IMG/VR virus record: IMGVR_UViG_3300042516_004811
Span: 1-64,000 of that record
Length of the DNA stretch: 64,000 nucleotides
Source of the DNA: a virus
Strand: one strand, 5' to 3'
The translations under genes were made by a program, and so were the position numbers. A model generated the notes under the pieces. It did no database searches. It was not told where the DNA came from and saw nothing but the letters and a program-made list of their open reading frames with translations. This document shows positions 28,305 to 59,081 of this stretch, one piece after another (within the stretch, counting starts at the first letter, position 1; every line of letters begins with the position of its first letter).

Positions 28305-28379
28305 TGGAGCCCCCGGACAGGATTGAACTGTCGACCTACCGCTTACAAGGCGGTTGCTCTACCACTGAGCTACAAGGGC
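28305..28379 (-). tRNA. tRNA-Thr(UGU)
   Basis: Cloverleaf GCCCTTG/CGGGGGC, D arm GCTCAGTGGTAGAGC, anticodon loop CT-TGT-AA, T loop TTCAATC, encoded CCA. Confidence 0.95.
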
Positions 28380-29319: not shown

Positions 29320-29823
29320 TCAATTGTTGTCTGATTTTTTTGGGGCCGGCGGAACGGCGTACTTTTCTGCCTCTATCTCATTGACTATACGTTCGTATGT
29401 CTTGCAGAAAGCTTCTCTATCTGAATTGGTGTGCATGGCATATGCCGGCTCCCCAATCTGCTTCACAGTTAATTTGAGTGCATCTGATACGGGTATCGAT
29501 GGAGGCATACCGGAATGCACCTCTTTTGAAAGGGTAATCCATTTACCCCAAGCAACAAGGGGTTCATCGAATTGGGGCATTTTTGTACGGGCATCAATTG
29601 TGGCACGTCTGATGATTCCGGGTCGCGGCATGAACTCTGCCCAGACTGCCATCTTCAGAAACGCGGCTTTTGTCTCTTCGTATCCCAGGTCGTGCAGTAG
29701 CTCCCACCAGGCGGTGTAGAGATTCTTTATATCCTCATCCCGCTGAGGGAGCTCTTTGGCGTAACTGGCGTGCACCTGGTCTACTAGAGATATCAGCTCT
29801 TCTTTGGTCATGAGTCGAGCCAC
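29320..29823 (-). CDS. helicase loader/inhibitor (G39P-like)
   Basis: AW.ELL.DL.YEE..AA......FMPRPG..R; follows the initiator-like gene. Confidence 0.55.
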   Translation of the reverse strand: MARLMTKEELISLVDQVHASYAKELPQRDEDIKNLYTAWWELLHDLGYEETKAAFLKMAVWAEFMPRPGIIRRATIDARTKMPQFDEPLVAWGKWITLSKEVHSGMPPSIPVSDALKLTVKQIGEPAYAMHTNSDREAFCKTYERIVNEIEAEKYAVPPAPKKSDNN

Positions 29824-30185
29824 TTCTGTTTGGCTGAGCTGGATTTGGTCTTATCGAGCTCATCATGAAAGCGCTCTACATGTTCTGCATCTCTAAAGAT
29901 GAGCGTAATGTCGTTGTAGGCAGTCTTGCGATTGTTCTGGCCCATATGGAACGGGGAGGCCTTGCAGCCGTCGATTGCGTCTCTGGCTCCATCTAGGCCG
30001 TATACAGCAATTGCCCAGCCGATGTCACGTGCGCGCTTGGTGTCCATTACTGCGCGCTTCTTGCCCATGACCTCTTTCCAGTAGTCGAATACTTCCTGTA
30101 CGAGAGTCATAGAGACAGTCTTTGATAGTTCTGTCTTTGACTTGTTGTGGGCGTTCTGACCCCGCCCCTTTGGTGTAGTAGTCAT
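29808..30185 (-). CDS. phage replication-initiator C-terminal-like protein
   Basis: VQEVFDYWKE...R...AIDGC...ITLIFR; leaderless after TTGACG-N18-TAGAAT. Confidence 0.5.
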   Translation of the reverse strand: MTTTPKGRGQNAHNKSKTELSKTVSMTLVQEVFDYWKEVMGKKRAVMDTKRARDIGWAIAVYGLDGARDAIDGCKASPFHMGQNNRKTAYNDITLIFRDAEHVERFHDELDKTKSSSAKQKWLDS

Positions 30186-30684
30186 CTGTGGCATTCTATC
30201 CCCGTTCTTCCGCCAGCGTCAATCAGATATTGTATTTGGATTGAGTCCAAAGTTTGAATTTATCCATTTTGAATTTTGAACAGACTTCACCTTAAACCCC
30301 TGTTAGAAACTTAATTCTCTTACTTAACTTGATGAGTAATTCTTGGAAAAGAATCTGTCTCATCTACAGAAGAGAATACAAAGCAGAAGAAGTAAAGAAC
30401 TTACTTTGGAGGGGGGTCTGGGGGGAACCTTTGCAAATACTTTTGCATTTGGGCATGCCAGAACCCACCAGGATTTGGTGGTCGTTTTTTTCTAGGTGGT
30501 GGGTGTATGCCTACACCGAATGAATCATTCTCTCGCTCTATTGAGCTCGATGAGGAAACACTATAGCGACTCTTCCACCACCGTCAACTACCTCCCGTAA
30601 GATTTTTTTGCCGGCGACGGATTTTGTTACAGTATTAGAACTATTTACACCATTCACGTGTTACATGTGTGGTATTTTAGCGGG

Positions 30685-30791
30685 GCTCCGATACGAAGTT
30701 CCCCCTTTCGCTTCGTAGAGGGGCAGGGTGCCGGGTTGAGCTTGGGATGGGTTGGTAGGTGGCCATCCTAAGCTCCCCGGACCCGCTTTCT
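30685..30791 (+). ncRNA. candidate two-hairpin small RNA
   Basis: TGTGG-TATTTT extended -10 at 30668-30678; two long stems; no ORF. Confidence 0.55.
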
Positions 30792-30905
30792 CAGTAGCCC
30801 TTCAGCCTGAGCCAGACAGCTACTGCAGCGGTACGTAGTTTATTGAAAATCTTCGTCATGTTCATGCCGGCAAACATAGCCCAGCTTCGCCGGCCACAGA
30901 CTTAT

Positions 30906-31283
30906 CTACTTGTCCCACTCGTCGAACATGGGCCAGAAATCCATATTGGCCGGCCGGTTGCGCGGCGGATTCTTTCTTTTTTTCGACATCTCGTCTCGAG
31001 CTAGCCGGGCCAAGGTCTCATTGTCCGGTTTATAACTAGTCGGATGCCGGTCCATTGCCTGCTTTTTTTGCTTTTCTCGTTCTTCCTTATGTGCACTCTC
31101 ATGAAGTTCGATGTAGTCATAGATTTCATCCATAAATCCATCACTGTATTTCTTCTCTTCTTCGAGAGCTGCCCAGTAACGACGTCTGGTTTTCCAGGCC
31201 TCGATTGTTTTCGAATCCCAAAACCAAAGTACGTAAGCTAGCGCGTGCAGCGCCAGTACAAAAATTTCCCACTTTTTCATCAT
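30906..31283 (-). CDS. hypothetical membrane-anchored protein
   Basis: N-terminal TM segment, AAGGGGG RBS. Confidence 0.55.
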   Translation of the reverse strand: MMKKWEIFVLALHALAYVLWFWDSKTIEAWKTRRRYWAALEEEKKYSDGFMDEIYDYIELHESAHKEEREKQKKQAMDRHPTSYKPDNETLARLARDEMSKKRKNPPRNRPANMDFWPMFDEWDK

Positions 31284-32048: not shown

Positions 32049-32780
32049 TCACTTCCTTGAGTCATTGATTAGCGGTAGGAGGAACCAGCCCCTCTCCCAC
32101 ATCATACCGATGGCGGAGTACCCAATGATGTCTAGGTACGTGTCGGTAACACTTTCGTTAGCCGACTCCCCGCCACGGAAGAGGTGAAGATTTTTCAGTC
32201 TGGCAATCTTGTCATGGCAGCGCACGAGTAGACCGTCCAGGCCAAACCGACTGATGTTCTCTGGACCGTAGTCAGTCTGCTTACGAATCAGGGTTTGTGT
32301 AATTTCTTCGCGGAGCATCCAGCTATCCAGGACGCCGGCCGATGCAGAATTTCCAAAATCTGGATGTTTTGCCATCTGGGCGTCGAGTGCATTCTTCATT
32401 AAATCGCTATTTTGAATGCCGGCAGCCGCAGCAATCGAGCCAAGAATTCGCCATTCTTCAACCCAGTACATCGAGTCACTTGAGAACCACTTCAGATTAT
32501 TGAGCATTCCCTCGAACTGAATGTCCAGGAGGTGGAGGCCTTCGAGAATATTGTTCAGTTTTTCATCAATACTGTCGACGCCGGCTGAGCTCACAATTCG
32601 TCGATTTTCTTCAGAATTTGAAAACGTGGAGACGTGGCCCAAAACCTTATCTACCGAGTCAAAAATCTGACAAACCACAATCTTGGCAGCATCCTGCCAG
32701 CGGTCTGGCTGCTGTGGGTTTATGTCTTCCACCACCGTCAACATCTTATCTACCTGTCCCCCATCGGGAAGTCGTCCCAT
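32049..32780 (-). CDS. DUF1599 / nucleotide-modification-associated domain protein
   Basis: RKQTDYG...GLLVRCHDKIARLKNL...ESV.DTYLDIIGYS. Confidence 0.75.
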   Translation of the reverse strand: MGRLPDGGQVDKMLTVVEDINPQQPDRWQDAAKIVVCQIFDSVDKVLGHVSTFSNSEENRRIVSSAGVDSIDEKLNNILEGLHLLDIQFEGMLNNLKWFSSDSMYWVEEWRILGSIAAAAGIQNSDLMKNALDAQMAKHPDFGNSASAGVLDSWMLREEITQTLIRKQTDYGPENISRFGLDGLLVRCHDKIARLKNLHLFRGGESANESVTDTYLDIIGYSAIGMMWERGWFLLPLINDSRK

Positions 32781-37145: not shown

Positions 37146-37868
37146 TCAGCGAACCTTGTCCACTGCGAGAGCGTCAAGAATCTGCTTGGCACGGCGACCA
37201 AAGGTGAGTTCGCAAGCCCTCTCCATTCCGAGAGACTTCCGCAACTTGTCCAGTGCGAGGAACGCACGGAGCGAGATTCGGTCATCACCAGCGTCAGCCA
37301 TGCGCACTGCGTATCCACGCAGGTCGGGAGACAGAGCCAGCAGAGCCGAGGGGTGAGGCTCGTTGATTCGGATTCGGATAGGGAAACGGTCAGCGAGAGC
37401 CGTGGGCAGTTCACCCATGTTCTCAATGTTCGTGGTCATAACGGCAGAGAAGCCGTTGAGAGGACGCAGGATTTCGCCAGTTTCGGGATGCTCGTAGGAA
37501 GCAGACTCGGGAGAGTCAAGCATTGCGAGCAGGGTAGCGAACACATCGCCACCAGCCTTATCTACCTCATCAACGATGAGGCGACCGCCCTTTGCTCCGT
37601 TGCCTTTCCACGCTTTGAGCGCAGAGCCGTCAAGCCACTGGAAGCCACCATTGTTGGACGGCATGAAACCGCCAGTGACATCCATGTTGGTCATGTCCTC
37701 GGTGCAGACGAGGCGGTATGCGCCAGCCTCGGTGTCTCCGAAATGCAGACCTGCGTAGGTCTTGCCGATTCCAGCAGGACCGAACAGGATGATTCGGTCA
37801 ATGCCAGCGTTGAGTGCGTCCTCAACATCTTTCCAGCACTTGGGTAGTGCTTCGGTGGTGGTGTCCAT
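37146..37868 (-). CDS. MoxR/CbbQ-like AAA+ ATPase
   Basis: GPAGIGKT, LIVDEVDK, TTN, ALADRF. Confidence 0.88.
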   Translation of the reverse strand: MDTTTEALPKCWKDVEDALNAGIDRIILFGPAGIGKTYAGLHFGDTEAGAYRLVCTEDMTNMDVTGGFMPSNNGGFQWLDGSALKAWKGNGAKGGRLIVDEVDKAGGDVFATLLAMLDSPESASYEHPETGEILRPLNGFSAVMTTNIENMGELPTALADRFPIRIRINEPHPSALLALSPDLRGYAVRMADAGDDRISLRAFLALDKLRKSLGMERACELTFGRRAKQILDALAVDKVR

Positions 37869-38196
37869 TGTTTGCTCCTTTGTAAGCGGTTGGTAGGGAC
37901 AGACACACCATACCATGCATGGTTCAGACTTAGTAACTCTTGACAGCCCGACTTATCTACCTACATAGAAGCCTTGCCAGCATTGGCTCTCCGACTTATC
38001 TACCTACATCAGCGCACACCTCTTATGTGGTGCGTTGCAGGTGGCATGTTGGCGCACGGATGATTCTCCGACTTTTCTAGCCGTCCCCCCATGCCTGCGC
38101 CCACCAGCCTGCGCTGGAGCCCCGCACCGCTCGGGCTTACAACGGGGCTCTTGTGGCCGGCGAGAGATTTATTGACTTTTTGACTTATCTACCTAG

Positions 38197-39374: not shown

Positions 39375-40061
39375 TTATTTACCTTCCTTTCTTGCTCGGG
39401 CAAGAAGGTCTTGGTACTCGGAAGTACGCAGAGCCATTTCCATGTATTGACAGATAGCGATGAGTGTGTCGGGGATTCGCCCAAACTCGCTGTCCTCTTT
39501 TAGTTCGCAGACCTCTGCCTTTGGTTCGGAGAACTGTGGGATTCCTTGGTCGTCGTACTTGTAGGGAGCAACGCTGTGCCACAACTTGTCTGCACCCCAG
39601 TTGATAGCGGTGATGACATGAGCCTCGCACACATCGGTAAATGGATTCTCCTGAAACTCCTTCTGCAAGTCGCCTCGGTTCATGTTCTTCATGTTCGCAC
39701 GACCTTCTTCGGGGTCGGTGAATGAGCGTGTGTAGCCCTCAACAGCGAGGATGATGAAGTCAAACTTGGCAATGGGCATTGCCTTGACCACATCCTCAAT
39801 GCAGTCCACTACATCCTCTTTGTGAATCAGAGGAATCATTGCAAGGTGGTAGGGCTTGCTCAGACCAACTTCCTGCTGGAACTCAACACAGGTGTCGTGT
39901 TCGGGGTTGGTTTCATTGCTCTCAACAGCGATGAGCATAATCGCAGGATTATCGGACATTGGCTCCGACTTGCACATCTCTATCTTGGCAAACTGTGAGC
40001 GAATAATCACATCCTCTACGAGAATCTGACCGTCCCTCTCAATGGCTTCTTTGGTGTTCAC
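39375..40061 (-). CDS. hypothetical protein
   Basis: Repeat promoter plus GAAAGGA RBS. Confidence 0.7.
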   Translation of the reverse strand: MNTKEAIERDGQILVEDVIIRSQFAKIEMCKSEPMSDNPAIMLIAVESNETNPEHDTCVEFQQEVGLSKPYHLAMIPLIHKEDVVDCIEDVVKAMPIAKFDFIILAVEGYTRSFTDPEEGRANMKNMNRGDLQKEFQENPFTDVCEAHVITAINWGADKLWHSVAPYKYDDQGIPQFSEPKAEVCELKEDSEFGRIPDTLIAICQYMEMALRTSEYQDLLARARKEGK

Positions 40062-40167
40062 AGTGTTTCCTTTCTGTGGGTTGGTGGTAATGGAAGCATA
40101 CCATGTATGGTTCAGACTTATCTACTGACTAATGGGGCTATCTCTCCCCAACGGTCAGCAATGTACT

Positions 40168-43236: not shown

Positions 43237-43585
43237 TTCTTATCTACCTTTCTTGGTGGGTGATGTGAACGACTGTACCACACACGGTTCAGACTTACAA
43301 AGCGAGTCATCCACCACCGTCATTGTGTTAGGGGGGTGTGTCAGAGTTATTTACCAGCCCCACCAAAAAAGCGAGAAATCTGAAACAGGCATGACTTATC
43401 TACTTGTCCCCCCACGCGCACGGGTTCACCGCCACCCGCAGGGAGCCCCGGCGGTCCACTGCATGTAGCGGGGCTCCAGCCGAACAGGTGGGTATGTGGC
43501 TCGGACTTATCTACCTACCTAGGCAGGGGGGCAGAGTGAGGGTAGATAAGTATGGGGGGCGCACTTATCTACCCTCTACCGCCAG

Positions 43586-45427: not shown

Positions 45428-45700
45428 GGAGATTTCATCACTCAACCAACTACGGCTATCTCGTCTAGCCATTCGCCTCGCAGAGATAGAAGCAGACCTC
45501 GGGTTCGTGGAAGCGCAGAACGCAGAGAACAGAGCAGTCCTCCGCAGAGCCACATTCCACTCGGTTTCAGAGTTATCTACCTCCCCTGAACCTCCCACTA
45601 TCTAGGTAGATAAGTGTCCCCAGACAAGCGAAAGGGGGAGTGAGCAACCAACTGCCCACTCCCCCTTGCTTGGGGCGTTTCCCTTATAGAGAAAGGGAGG

Positions 45701-46123
45701 CTAGAGGTACTCCGCCACGCTCTTGAGTGTGGTTGCCGACACATACTCTTGGTCGGTCATTTCCAGCACTCGGATTGCTTGTTCCAAAGCCTCTCGGTCA
45801 GCCTTCCAGTTCCACTCCTTGTAGAGTTCGGGGGACTCGGGCTCGCTTCCGATAGTGGACTTCGGGAACTCAAAGGTCGCCTGAATGGTCACGACCTTTT
45901 CCTTGTTGTTGGGTCGCCAGCGAGAAGTGGTTGCCTCCGTGACCTTGCCCTTGCCAGCCTTGACAAGTTTCAGCAGGTTGGTGTTGTATGCCTCCACAGC
46001 CTTGTCATACTCGGCTTCCAACTTGTCGTTGTTGGCGAACCGCTTGGCTCGCTCGTCAAGTGCCTTCTTGAGTGCCTCCAAGAGAACACTCACCTTGACT
46101 TTCACCTGAAGTGATTTGGACAT
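45701..46123 (-). CDS. hypothetical protein
   Basis: Repeat promoter, RBS, downstream hairpin at 45628-45667. Confidence 0.7.
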   Translation of the reverse strand: MSKSLQVKVKVSVLLEALKKALDERAKRFANNDKLEAEYDKAVEAYNTNLLKLVKAGKGKVTEATTSRWRPNNKEKVVTIQATFEFPKSTIGSEPESPELYKEWNWKADREALEQAIRVLEMTDQEYVSATTLKSVAEYL

Positions 46124-46468: not shown

Positions 46469-46909
46469 TTAGAAGGCTCGCACCAGCAGGTTCTGAACTG
46501 CGTCAGCGAGTGAACCCGTTGCCTGTCCTTCATCCACGACTGGTTCAGTCGGCTCGTCTTGGAAGCGGAGAACGCTCACCACGCTCTCACGGCTGGCGAA
46601 CACGGAGAGACGGACACGCCTCTTGGCAGGGTGTTCGCTCGGTGCGCCTTCGGCTTCGCCCTCGCTGTTGAGTGGCGCCGCCCAGCCTGTCGTGACAAGT
46701 GCTATGTAGTCGGACACCTGCGCCACCTTTACGGCAGTATCGCTGTCCAGCAGGTCGTACACATCCCGTTCGGCGGTAGCGAGCGTCAGGCTCACCTCTC
46801 CGTTCAGGTCAATGTTCACGGAGTAGAGGTGTGCGCTACCCATTTCGTAGCCCACCTCTGCGTCAATGATTTCTTCCGCTCTGGAAGCACTTTCGGTGAA
46901 TGTTGCCAT
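46469..46909 (-). CDS. hypothetical protein
   Basis: Repeat promoter plus GAAAGGGA RBS. Confidence 0.7.
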   Translation of the reverse strand: MATFTESASRAEEIIDAEVGYEMGSAHLYSVNIDLNGEVSLTLATAERDVYDLLDSDTAVKVAQVSDYIALVTTGWAAPLNSEGEAEGAPSEHPAKRRVRLSVFASRESVVSVLRFQDEPTEPVVDEGQATGSLADAVQNLLVRAF

Positions 46910-47308
46910 TTGGTTGTCCCTTTCTCGGTTGGTTGGTTGGACACCACGACAGTACCACATACGGTTCAGACTTAGCAAGGGTGGGACTTATCTACCTAGT
47001 CAGCGAGTGCGCTGGTGAGGTTCTTCCACCACCGTGAATGTCTTGGGGAGAGGTTGTCACGCCCTGCCTCACCGCACGGCTTGACGAACTCGGCAACTTG
47101 ATGCGACTTATCTACTTGCCCACCCCTTCCTGCGCCTCACCGCCCCAGCACGGCGGAGCCCCGGCGGTGATGAGCGTCAGCGGGGCTCCTGCCCACCATC
47201 GGCGCACGGAGAGAAATGTCATCGGCTCGGCATTGGGTCGGACTTATCTACCCCCTCACAGAAAGGGGGAGAGAGAGGGTAGATAAGTGCCGAACGCCTA
47301 CGCTACCG

Positions 47309-50926: not shown

Positions 50927-51442
50927 TCAGCAGATAGAGAAACCGCCAGAGTTCTCCAAGAACTCCACGAACGCACGGACATTCTCCGTGCTGAACGGAT
51001 AGCCAGACTCCCACGACTCTCGTGTGCCTATCCCGTCACAAGCGTTACACCAGCCGTGTGTGCGACCAGTCAAAATCTGAACTTCTACGGACAACTCTTT
51101 GTCGTGTTGCCCCATCTCACGACCAATGTCATCAGTACGGATACCCGTGCCGTCACAGAGGTCGCACTTCTCACGGGGAAGGCTCGCCCTCCACTCGTTG
51201 TATTGACGCTCGTTCTCGGCGGTAGCACCCGTCTCCAACTCGTGGCGCAACTGCTTGGCGAGTTCCAGCGCACCAGACTCATCCAGCCCGTCACCGTCGT
51301 TGTAGTGACCAGACACGCCCTCGCAGAGTTCGGGAGCAACCGTCACGCAGTAGTCCCACAGGGGTCGCCACCACCACACATTGTTGCGGAAGTATTCGCC
51401 CGTCTCGTTGGTCGGCTTCTTGCCGTACACATCCATTCCCAT
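50927..51442 (-). CDS. hypothetical protein with a DnaJ-type CxxCxGxG Zn finger
   Basis: MGMD...YFRNN.W.WRPLW; CDLCDGTG, CNACDGIG. Confidence 0.7.
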   Translation of the reverse strand: MGMDVYGKKPTNETGEYFRNNVWWWRPLWDYCVTVAPELCEGVSGHYNDGDGLDESGALELAKQLRHELETGATAENERQYNEWRASLPREKCDLCDGTGIRTDDIGREMGQHDKELSVEVQILTGRTHGWCNACDGIGTRESWESGYPFSTENVRAFVEFLENSGGFSIC

Positions 51443-51506
51443 TACTTTGCCCCTTTCACTTGGCTCGGTCTTGTGAGCGTACCACACACGGCACAGACTT
51501 ATCTAC

Positions 51507-51877: not shown

Positions 51878-52162
51878 TCAGGCGGTGATTTCCTGCCAGC
51901 CGACCGACTCGCAACGGAACCGCTTGCCGTCGACCTCAACCTCGTCACCGACCGACAGGGCCGTGTGGGTGCGGTCCTCGGGCAGGACTGGCTCCAGCAG
52001 GTTCCAGAACTCACCTGTGTAGGTGTTGGTGTCGTGGAACACGAACTCGCAAACCGTGCGTTCGTTCACATCTGCGATGCTGGTCCACTTCACGGTGGTC
52101 TGGGTCGGCGTTCCGAAGGCCTTCCAAATCACCGTGATGGTGCGTGTGTCTGTGTCGAGCAT
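51878..52162 (-). CDS. hypothetical protein
   Basis: LSVGD.V.VDG....C...GW motif, repeat promoter. Confidence 0.7.
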   Translation of the reverse strand: MLDTDTRTITVIWKAFGTPTQTTVKWTSIADVNERTVCEFVFHDTNTYTGEFWNLLEPVLPEDRTHTALSVGDEVEVDGKRFRCESVGWQEITA

Positions 52163-52222
52163 TGCTCCCCTTTCTGGCGAGCCCTTCTCGCCTTCCCCTG
52201 AACTGTACCACGCACGGTTCAG

Positions 52223-53005: not shown

Positions 53006-53032
53006 CTGTCCCATTGCTGGTAATGTGTTGGC

Positions 53033-53419
53033 ATGACCAAGACCACCGAGTACGACAAGAAGTTCCAAGACAAGTACGGCAATGATGTTCCCAAGGGTGA
53101 TGGCGATTGCTTTGACAAGGCCGTGGAAGTAGCGGAGCGATTTGAGAAGGACTACCCCGATGTTCTCATTGTTCACGGAGAACCGATTGGCACGGGTGGT
53201 GAAGCATTGGGGGTTCGCTTTCCTCACGCTTGGGTTGAGTTGGACCTAAATGGCTTTGCGCTCGTGATTGACGAGTCCAATGGAAACGATGTGACGATTT
53301 CCAGGGATTTCTACTACGCTTTCGGCAACATCGTGGAAGCCGATGTGGTGAGGTACACGCTGACCGAGGCACGGATACAGATGCTGAAGCACAAGCACTA
53401 CGGCCCTTGGCACTGGTAG
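53033..53419 (+). CDS. transglutaminase/cysteine-protease-like protein
   Basis: GDCF...VHG...HAWVE..ID; leaderless after TAATGT. Confidence 0.55.
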   Translation: MTKTTEYDKKFQDKYGNDVPKGDGDCFDKAVEVAERFEKDYPDVLIVHGEPIGTGGEALGVRFPHAWVELDLNGFALVIDESNGNDVTISRDFYYAFGNIVEADVVRYTLTEARIQMLKHKHYGPWHW

Positions 53420-58588: not shown

Positions 58589-58781
58589 TTCGTCTCCGTT
58601 CGCTATTTGCTTGTAGATAAATCTATCTGAAAGTACCCCCTTTCAGGCAGATGATTTCAGGCGGGGCTCCCCCTTGGGGGTGGGTTGGGCGCACGGGGAA
58701 CGGGTAGATAAGTCTGAACCGTATGTGGTACAGTGTTGATAGGAGGCACCAACGCCCCCGAACCGACCGAAAGGGGTCACC

Positions 58782-59081
58782 ATGTCCAGACCAATCATCC
58801 CAGTGAAAGCAGAGGCGATGCCATCGCTTCTCAGCGCATACCTCGCACGAGAAATCGACATGTTCGATGGTCACATCATCCGTGAGTTCCACCAGTTCGC
58901 CCTGCAAGCACAGGACGCGTTTGAGAAGGTCACCCAGACACCAGCGATGGCCGACTTCTACGCATCTTGTCTGCAACAGACAATCGCTCAACTGCTTGCC
59001 ACGACCTGCAAGACCGCAGGACTTCGGAACGCTCAGCGAGCCGTTGATGGCGCAATCACACAGCACACAGACAGCGTGTAG
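58782..59081 (+). CDS. hypothetical protein
   Basis: Repeat promoter, CGAAAGGGG RBS, terminator at 59115-59144. Confidence 0.65.
   Translation: MSRPIIPVKAEAMPSLLSAYLAREIDMFDGHIIREFHQFALQAQDAFEKVTQTPAMADFYASCLQQTIAQLLATTCKTAGLRNAQRAVDGAITQHTDSV

Follow-up and report, generated by a model that had tools for sequence, protein, structure and literature searches.

What does an uncultured phage keep in a gap of some hundreds of base pairs where all the surrounding genes run the other way, and could the product act on the phage's own early messages? The virus record examined here is 151,107 bp long with direct terminal repeats, and the window, by which the whole analysed stretch of DNA is meant, is its first 64 kb. 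A preliminary description of the window, made from its letters, proposed that the gap encodes a small RNA whose first hairpin exposes a loop complementary to the ribosome-binding site (RBS) of a set of phage genes. Every lytic phage has to switch off its early genes at the right time, a central problem to which the textbook answers are proteins, such as RegA of phage T4, and changes of the RNA polymerase. An RNA with a loop that mirrors the early Shine–Dalgarno (SD) sequence would probably be another kind of answer, an RNA switch for early protein synthesis. The positions of the features discussed below are collected in Table 1.

Table 1. Parts of the RNA element and candidate target leaders in the window.
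Feature	Positions	Strand	Description
Extended -10 promoter	30670–30678	+	TGG-TATTTT (TGnTAnnnT); predicted start ~30684–30686
Hairpin 1	30685–30724	+	GCUCC-GA-UACGAAG[UUCCCCCUUUCG]CUUCGUA-GA-GGGGC in the MFE fold; lower stem GCUCC/GGGGC, GA/GA internal loop, upper stem UACGAAG/CUUCGUA
Loop 1	30699–30710	+	UUCCCCCUUUCG; invariant core CCCCUUUC at 30702–30709, complement of GAAAGGGG
Hairpin 2	30731–30780	+	GC-rich base; invariant GGUUGAG/CUCCCC segment with UU bulge; variable middle stem
Loop 2	30751–30762	+	GUUGGUAGGUGG; invariant core UUGGUAGGUG at 30752–30761, complement of CACCUACCAA
Pyrimidine-rich 3' tail	30781–30794	+	ACCCGCUUUCUCAG; CACCUUCGCUUUUCA at the same place in relatives
Candidate leader, 240-aa AAA ATPase gene	37866–37900	-	CCUACCAACC, perfect 10-nt loop-2 complement; SD AAAGGAG
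Candidate leader, 228-aa gene	40059–40088	-	ACCACCAACCCACAGAAAGGAAAC...GUG; duplex with loop 2 of -18.9 to -20.2 kcal/mol
Candidate leader	46907–46942	-	GUCCAACCAACCAACCGAGAAAGGGAC...AUG
Candidate leader	51440–51469	-	Exact GAAAGGGG SD
Candidate leader	52160–52195	-	Exact GAAAGGGG SD
Candidate leader	58741–58784	+	CGAAAGGGG, 9-nt loop-1 complement

Genomic Setting of the Element

The element lies in a gap of ~700 bp between two minus-strand open reading frames (ORFs; 29808–30194 and 30906–31283), and the genes around it are all on the strand opposite to it. The phages that bear it form a group of uncultured phages of 150 kb. The best protein matches to the SNF2 helicase of the window phage are found in Arthrobacter and Gordonia phages, at ~33% identity; together with promoters of the TANNNT type and leaderless starts, these matches fit an actinobacterial host. 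A nucleotide match to the 711-bp gap was not found among cultured phage records. The relatives of the two flanking proteins are only near-identical or non-syntenic, which makes these proteins useless for synteny, and the useful relatives came from the DUF1599 gene at 32049–32780, which served as the synteny anchor.

Two other features lie close to the element. The only tRNA gene of the window, for tRNA-Thr with anticodon TGT, is 2.3 kb away at 28305–28379 (-). Upstream in the same gap, positions 30405–30492 (+) are 87% identical to the closest relative, L141. This stretch contains a G-rich run, GGAGGGGGGTCTGGGGGGAACC, whose GGGGGAA is the complement of the 5' half of loop 1, and a hairpin, CCACC...GGTGG, which is followed in the window by a run of seven T; the fold of the whole stretch is not significant (z = -0.5).

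A Conserved RNA with Two Hairpins

Positions 30680–30795 have a minimum free energy (MFE) of -61.7 kcal/mol with a z-score of -3.55, and 2 of 200 shuffled sequences fold equally well. The sequence and the pair of hairpins first described at 30685–30780 on the plus strand are borne out by the letters and by the fold. Hairpin 2 has an inner stem of 13 bp that closes a 12-nt loop and is followed by ACCCGCUUUCUC. The exposed segments are of two types, loop 1 being C-rich and loop 2 G/U-rich. When the 15 known members are folded from the predicted start, all of them form the identical two-hairpin structure, with unpaired probabilities of 0.86–1.00 for loop 1 and 0.55–0.80 for loop 2. An additional outer stem drawn by RNAfold, GCGGG/CCCGC, was rejected, as only 64% of its alignment cells are paired and several members lack an intact stem. 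The preliminary description also drew attention to the tandem GA internal loop, which is peculiar to the window phage and not conserved.

The element matches no Rfam family. A search of the whole window against Rfam at gathering scores returned a tRNA only, and cmscan of positions 30100–31000 with E-values up to 10 returned just miRNA, snoRNA, and CRISPR models as chance matches. A covariance model built from the window sequence (R1) found full-length matches in 17 related viral loci. As in the window, the RNA in each of these is encoded on the strand opposite to the homologue of the DUF1599 gene, ~1.2 kb beyond it. Further members were taken from motif scans of viral and metagenome contigs. 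In the loose scan of viral contigs, ~80% of 100 matches were chance hits or coding sequence, and true members occurred only among gaps of 11–12 nt. The distinct member sequences number 15 in total, and all come from viral or metagenome contigs. One strong copy, scoring 74–123 bits, is present in each of five complete or near-complete genomes (G000–G004, the window's genome and four relatives fetched whole). The same type of scan across 185,579 bacterial and archaeal genomes gave a single match, which the covariance model rejected.

Comparison of the members argues for selection on an RNA structure. In the model-fitted alignment, 89% of the cells are paired, versus 37–54% when the 3' partners are slid out of register. 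Both sides change in 24 of the 36 base pairs, and none of 500 shuffled alignments reaches any of the measures. The two helices of hairpin 1 (helices 2 and 3) are paired in 96% and 90% of cells, with changes on both sides in 10 of 13 pairs, and that of hairpin 2 (helix 4) is paired in 93%, with changes on both sides in 12 of 18 pairs. Against these covarying stems stand four blocks that are invariant in all 15 members: the 5' segment CGGGGCU(U/C)C, the core of loop 1, the GGUUGAG/CUCCCC segment with its UU bulge, and the core of loop 2. The invariance of loop 2 had been missed at first, along with the lack of conservation of the GA loop and the motifs that the RNA has in common with a repeated intergenic element (see below). 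The RNA is read from the plus strand, since its frequent G·U pairs would turn into A·C mismatches on the other.

The locus had also been described as holding no ORF. ORFs of 36–37 aa with TTG or GTG starts do overlap the element, but they are unconserved, and the conservation pattern is that of an RNA because the stems covary and their insertions and deletions are not multiples of three. By these comparative measures, the element is a conserved RNA gene and a new RNA family, so that the small RNA originally proposed becomes a conserved gene with a promoter signature of its own. Its predicted product is a phage small RNA of ~100–110 nt with the two hairpins, transcribed alone.

Promoter and 3' End

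Directly upstream of the RNA, the letters TG-TA---T are invariant, first in 8 and then in all 15 aligned members, including the extended -10 that had been pointed out in the window. They form an extended -10 promoter signature. A start 6–8 nt past the -10 would, judged from this spacing, fall on the first base of hairpin 1, as had been proposed. Early promoters of the phage have CTG(A/T)(A/C)CC right before TGGTAC, and the upstream part of the RNA's promoter differs from this, which suggests that the RNA is probably regulated differently from its presumed targets.

The other end is less sharply marked. Past hairpin 2 comes a conserved C/U-rich tail that contains only 3–4 U, and a terminator scan makes no call there; the RNA may end within this tail, where the U run is weak.

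The sequences flanking the RNA vary within the group. In L087, L037, L082, L076, and other relatives, a palindromic or near-palindromic box, CTTGCAAG or TTTGCGAG, stands ~21 nt upstream of the RNA's -10. Its distance from the -10 is too great for a normal -35, and it is possibly an operator. TTTACAC takes its place in the window and in L141. On the 3' side, a word private to the phage (ACTTATCTACC or TTATCTAC) adjoins the end of hairpin 2 in L141 and L087, and in the window it is found at 30898–30909, ~110 nt further on from hairpin 2.

Loop 1 and the Early Ribosome-Binding Site

The core of loop 1 is the exact complement of GAAAGGGG, the RBS of promoter-proximal early genes. RBSs were counted in the five genomes as motifs placed 3–10 nt ahead of a start codon, for ORFs of 40 aa or more. 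By this count, GAAAGGGG is used as an RBS at 31 sites (3, 9, 11, 4, and 4 in G000–G004) and the canonical GAAAGGAG at 0. SDs of the GAAAGGG type serve 14, 17, 16, 7, and 5 genes in the same order, and 10, 14, 13, 6, and 1 of these genes are at most 75 nt from an extended -10. SDs of the GGAGG type serve 13–27 genes per genome and are found near an extended -10 promoter in 0, 0, 3, 0, and 0 cases. Genes with GGAGG sites and leaderless genes are classes apart from the GAAAGGGG genes. Within the window's genome, exact GAAAGGGG has 8 copies, 3 of them at an RBS, and GAAAGGGA is commoner, with 13 copies and 9 at an RBS. The 11 RBSs listed in the preliminary description all prove to be GAAAGGG(G/A) and to stand 5–7 nt before ATG.

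The actinobacterial 16S rRNA ends in the tail CCUCCUUUC, with which GAAAGGAG would pair perfectly. With 31 uses of GAAAGGGG and 0 of GAAAGGAG, the promoter-proximal early genes of the phage family are therefore distinguished by an SD that is one letter off the host optimum. In a single control, the cultured Arthrobacter phage Ottawa, GAGGAG is the dominant motif and AAGGGG precedes 1 of the 83 annotated starts, which argues that GAAAGGGG is not a general habit of actinophages.

A set of 65 early leaders, defined by their promoter alone, contains the exact 8-mer in 23 members and at least 7 nt of it in 39. Loop 1 pairs better with these leaders than with other start regions (p = 1e-5 to 3e-4 in G000–G002), a comparison to be read with the caveat that any SD-like sequence partly complements any anti-SD-like loop and that a control with the 16S anti-SD scores well too. 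Counts across the five genomes are not independent, as the leaders are partly orthologous. The core of loop 1 never varies, and covariation of the loop with the SD is for that reason unavailable as proof of pairing; there is only a weak trend in G004, where the loop reads ACCCC and the SD is followed by T in 8 of 15 cases versus ~30% elsewhere. The seed CCCCUUUC is conserved and unpaired, with exact complements at 31 RBSs in mRNAs encoded elsewhere in the genomes. The complementarity of loop and RBS, first seen in the window, is exact for the SD of leadered early genes throughout the phage family.

The presumed regulon is a mixture of small accessory genes, among them those for an AAA ATPase, a ParA-like protein, and DUF1281_C, DUF4241, and DUF3846 proteins, besides genes of unknown function. 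Their leaders are 25–45 nt long, A/C-rich, and mostly unstructured. The leaderless genes, which had been proposed to escape the RNA, are a conserved separate class and would be out of its reach. Their ATG or GTG stands 6–8 nt after TGnTAnnnT, as at 53018–53035 (+) in the window and at 86072 (-), 126109 (+), and 135258 (+) in G000, with orthologues in G001–G004. The class includes two genes of ~180 aa and the gene of a giant head protein, whose length ranges from 1210 to 4250 aa in the five genomes.

SD and anti-SD sequences also occur in hairpins at other places in these genomes. One hairpin, at 45620–45680 (-), lies just past the stop of the early gene 45701–46123 (z = -3.8 for 45590–45720). 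In it, an SD-like AAGGGGGAGUG is paired with CACUCCCCCUU, the loop holds GUUGGU, and the 3' side carries CCCCCUUUCGCUU. The 14 nt at 45626–45639 match, letter for letter, the small RNA's loop 1 and the first bases of its stem, and the hairpin may be related to the anti-SD motif as a cis-encoded form. Several copies of GAAAGGGG away from RBSs (~18306 and ~25887 in G001, ~103495 and ~111350 in G002, and 47261 in the window) sit in the loops of hairpins whose arms are the private box of the respective phage, for example GAGTAGATAAGT-GAAAGGGGGG-ACTTATCTACTC. Such hairpins display the SD or the anti-SD, depending on which strand is transcribed.

Loop 2 and the A/C-Rich Tract

Early leaders have a common layout, in which G(U/C)CC is followed by an A/C-rich tract and then by the SD. 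The core of loop 2, UUGGUAGGUG, often complements this tract, mostly at 0–6 nt 5' of the SD. The perfect complement in the AAA ATPase leader of the window also occurs in two leaders of G002; other complements are CACCUACCAAC and ACCUACCAA in two leaders of G004, and CACCUACCGA and ACCAACCC in leaders of the window. A Watson–Crick match of at least 7 nt to loop 2 is found in 19 of the 65 leaders, where permuted loops average 3.3 (38 of 2000 do as well), and one of at least 8 nt in 9 of 65, where they average 0.9 (16 of 2000). The enrichment of loop-2 matches near the SD thus has a p of about 0.01–0.02. Among 31 leaders with a match of at least 6 nt, 30 have it on the 5' side of the SD or directly adjoining it, separated by -1 to 14 nt. 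Antiparallel pairing requires just such an order, given that loop 1 is 5' and loop 2 is 3' in the RNA. The longer the match to one loop, the shorter it tends to be to the other (rho = -0.30, p = 0.014, from data that are not independent).

Duplex energies give a mixed picture. Real loop 2 outperforms a control of reversed polarity in G001 (-15.9 vs -10.2 kcal/mol) and in G002 (-15.5 vs -11.6 kcal/mol), but in the window's genome it is no better than that control (medians of -10.4 vs -10.7 kcal/mol). Scanning the whole genome for loop-2 energy gives much noise: 1524 sites reach -13 kcal/mol or better, and the top ones are arms of a repeated intergenic element, not leaders. With the reversed control equal in the window's genome and the best partners being repeat arms, an address for loop 2 on the leaders is suggestive only.

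The same loops can be read in another way. A real RNA could have its invariant loops bound by a protein, by host mRNAs, or by host rRNA and ribosomes, rather than by phage leaders. Loop 1 would then copy the 16S anti-SD, from whose tail it differs by one letter, loop 2 would hold an SD-like AGGUG(A/G), and the match to the early SD would be a by-product. The invariance of ten loop-2 letters and of the paired GGUUGAG/CUCCCC segment speaks for this reading; variable tracts hardly seem to call for so much constancy, which typifies a protein site or a single fixed partner. The motif is absent from the bacterial genomes scanned, so no homologue in the host explains it. The reading would leave unexplained, on the other hand, why GAAAGGAG is avoided (0 sites) and GAAAGGGG used (31 sites) and why the complement of loop 2 adjoins the SD in the right order, and the SD-like stretch of loop 2 is just 6 nt long. 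On balance, binding to a partner other than the phage leaders is unlikely, although it carries appreciable weight.

Link to a Repeated Intergenic Element

The repeated intergenic element has a central hairpin (GGAGCCCCG...CGGGGCTCC, 43449–43479 in the window), and the 3' arm of this hairpin is identical to the first 12 nt of the RNA region, TAGCGGGGCTCC (30678–30689). Copies of GGAGCCCCG number 30, 30, 27, 12, and 15 in G000–G004. The small RNA and the repeated element may share an ancestor or a binding factor.

This kinship is the starting point for a third account of the locus, in which the element has no function in trans and is a local terminator or insulator between convergent units or else a diverged copy of the repeat that has been kept. 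An arm of the repeat's hairpin at 43468–43479 recurs at the start of the RNA region, loop 2 resembles another arm of the repeat, GGGGAGGCAGGTAGATAAG, the covariance models give weak matches of 19–22 bits on the repeated elements, and hairpin 2 could act as a terminator. A plain terminator, though, would need neither two invariant loops nor an invariant promoter of its own nor a single syntenic copy per genome, and the loops of the small RNA are unchanged between relatives. A purely local role is accordingly very unlikely.

Proposed Mechanism

The interpretation first given, of a phage RNA that shuts off leadered messages and spares leaderless genes, is partly supported by these comparisons. 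In the reading preferred here, which we consider to have roughly an equal chance of being right or wrong, the RNA acts in trans on early mRNAs of the phage itself, covering their leaders and so lowering their translation. The RNA would be transcribed from its own extended -10 promoter, on the strand opposite to the neighbouring genes. Loop 1 would pair with the SD and loop 2 with the neighbouring A/C-rich tract. Such pairing would keep 30S subunits off the leader, and the translation of roughly 15–20 early genes would fall. Genes with SDs of the GGAGG type and leaderless genes would be spared. As the leaders are short and for the most part lack structure, repression would be the natural outcome of pairing; this direction of the effect is an assumption of the model.

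The sign could also be the reverse. The RNA may pair with early leaders and act positively or on stability, for instance by protecting them from nucleases or by setting the timing of translation. The complementarity is the same in both cases, and the sequence does not fix the direction of the effect. Short, A/C-rich, mostly unstructured leaders, however, offer no inhibitory fold that an activator could open, and covering of an SD normally blocks initiation (PMC6486639). An activating or stabilizing role is for these reasons quite unlikely.

A more specific form of the repression model ascribes to the early leaders a private address in two parts, an ACC-rich tract and GAAAGGGG, with GAAAGGAG strictly avoided. 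One RNA with two loops would read both parts and silence 15–20 early genes, while leaderless genes and genes with GGAGG sites would still be translated. This complete version is tentative and probably goes too far, but it is a real possibility.

Comparison with Known Regulatory RNAs

The actinobacterial small RNA 6C has C-rich loops that pair with the G-rich RBSs of several mRNAs, apparently without a chaperone (PMC6486639). The phage RNA has in common with 6C (B11, RF01066) that it is a small hairpin RNA in an actinobacterial setting and that an unpaired C-rich loop faces G-rich RBSs. It differs in giving no match to the 6C model even at E = 10, and in having one C-rich and one G/U-rich loop where 6C has two C-rich ones. 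Moreover, 6C resides on actinobacterial chromosomes, whereas the phage RNA is phage-encoded, is absent from bacterial genomes by motif scan, and has the phage's own early genes as presumed targets.

A second resemblance is to the c4 RNA of phages P1 and P7, in which loop sequences block an RBS (PMC12197685). Like c4 (RF01695), the RNA is phage-encoded and would act in trans through loops that pair around the RBS of phage mRNA, the pairing being a prediction in the present case. The c4 model gives no match at E-values up to 10. Control by c4 is of one operon (icd-ant) and serves immunity, unlike the phage RNA, which faces ~15–20 leaders that share a private SD. Compared with the two exposed segments of c4, the complement of loop 1 here is the SD itself, and the complement of loop 2 lies alongside it at the modest enrichment given above. 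In its predicted workings, the phage RNA is most like the actinobacterial 6C RNA and also resembles c4. It is a member of neither family, given the lack of model matches, the single C-rich loop, and its location on phages.

Anti-SD loops on hairpins are likewise found in small RNAs of Firmicutes with C-rich loops, namely S. aureus RNAIII and RNAs of the RsaE/RoxS type. RNAIII makes two loop-loop contacts on one target. These RNAs are host-encoded, have other folds, and show no sequence relation to the phage RNA, and their motif is UCCC as opposed to CCCCUUUC. T4 RegA is a phage translational repressor that acts at the initiation regions of the phage's early mRNAs and shuts off many of them. 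The logic proposed here is the same, with the difference that RegA is a protein and the proposed effector is an RNA. A search of a library of papers found no described actinophage RNA of this kind.

Significance for Phage Biology

The complementarity conserved throughout the phage family points to an RNA that carries out early shut-off on a whole class of genes, namely those whose ribosome-binding sequence is a single letter away from the host optimum. Should this hold, the avoidance of the best SD by the early genes would have an explanation, and phage biology would gain a riboregulator that acts on an entire regulon. Actinobacteria, in which the mechanisms of small RNAs are poorly known, would then also have a compact, orthogonal translation switch.
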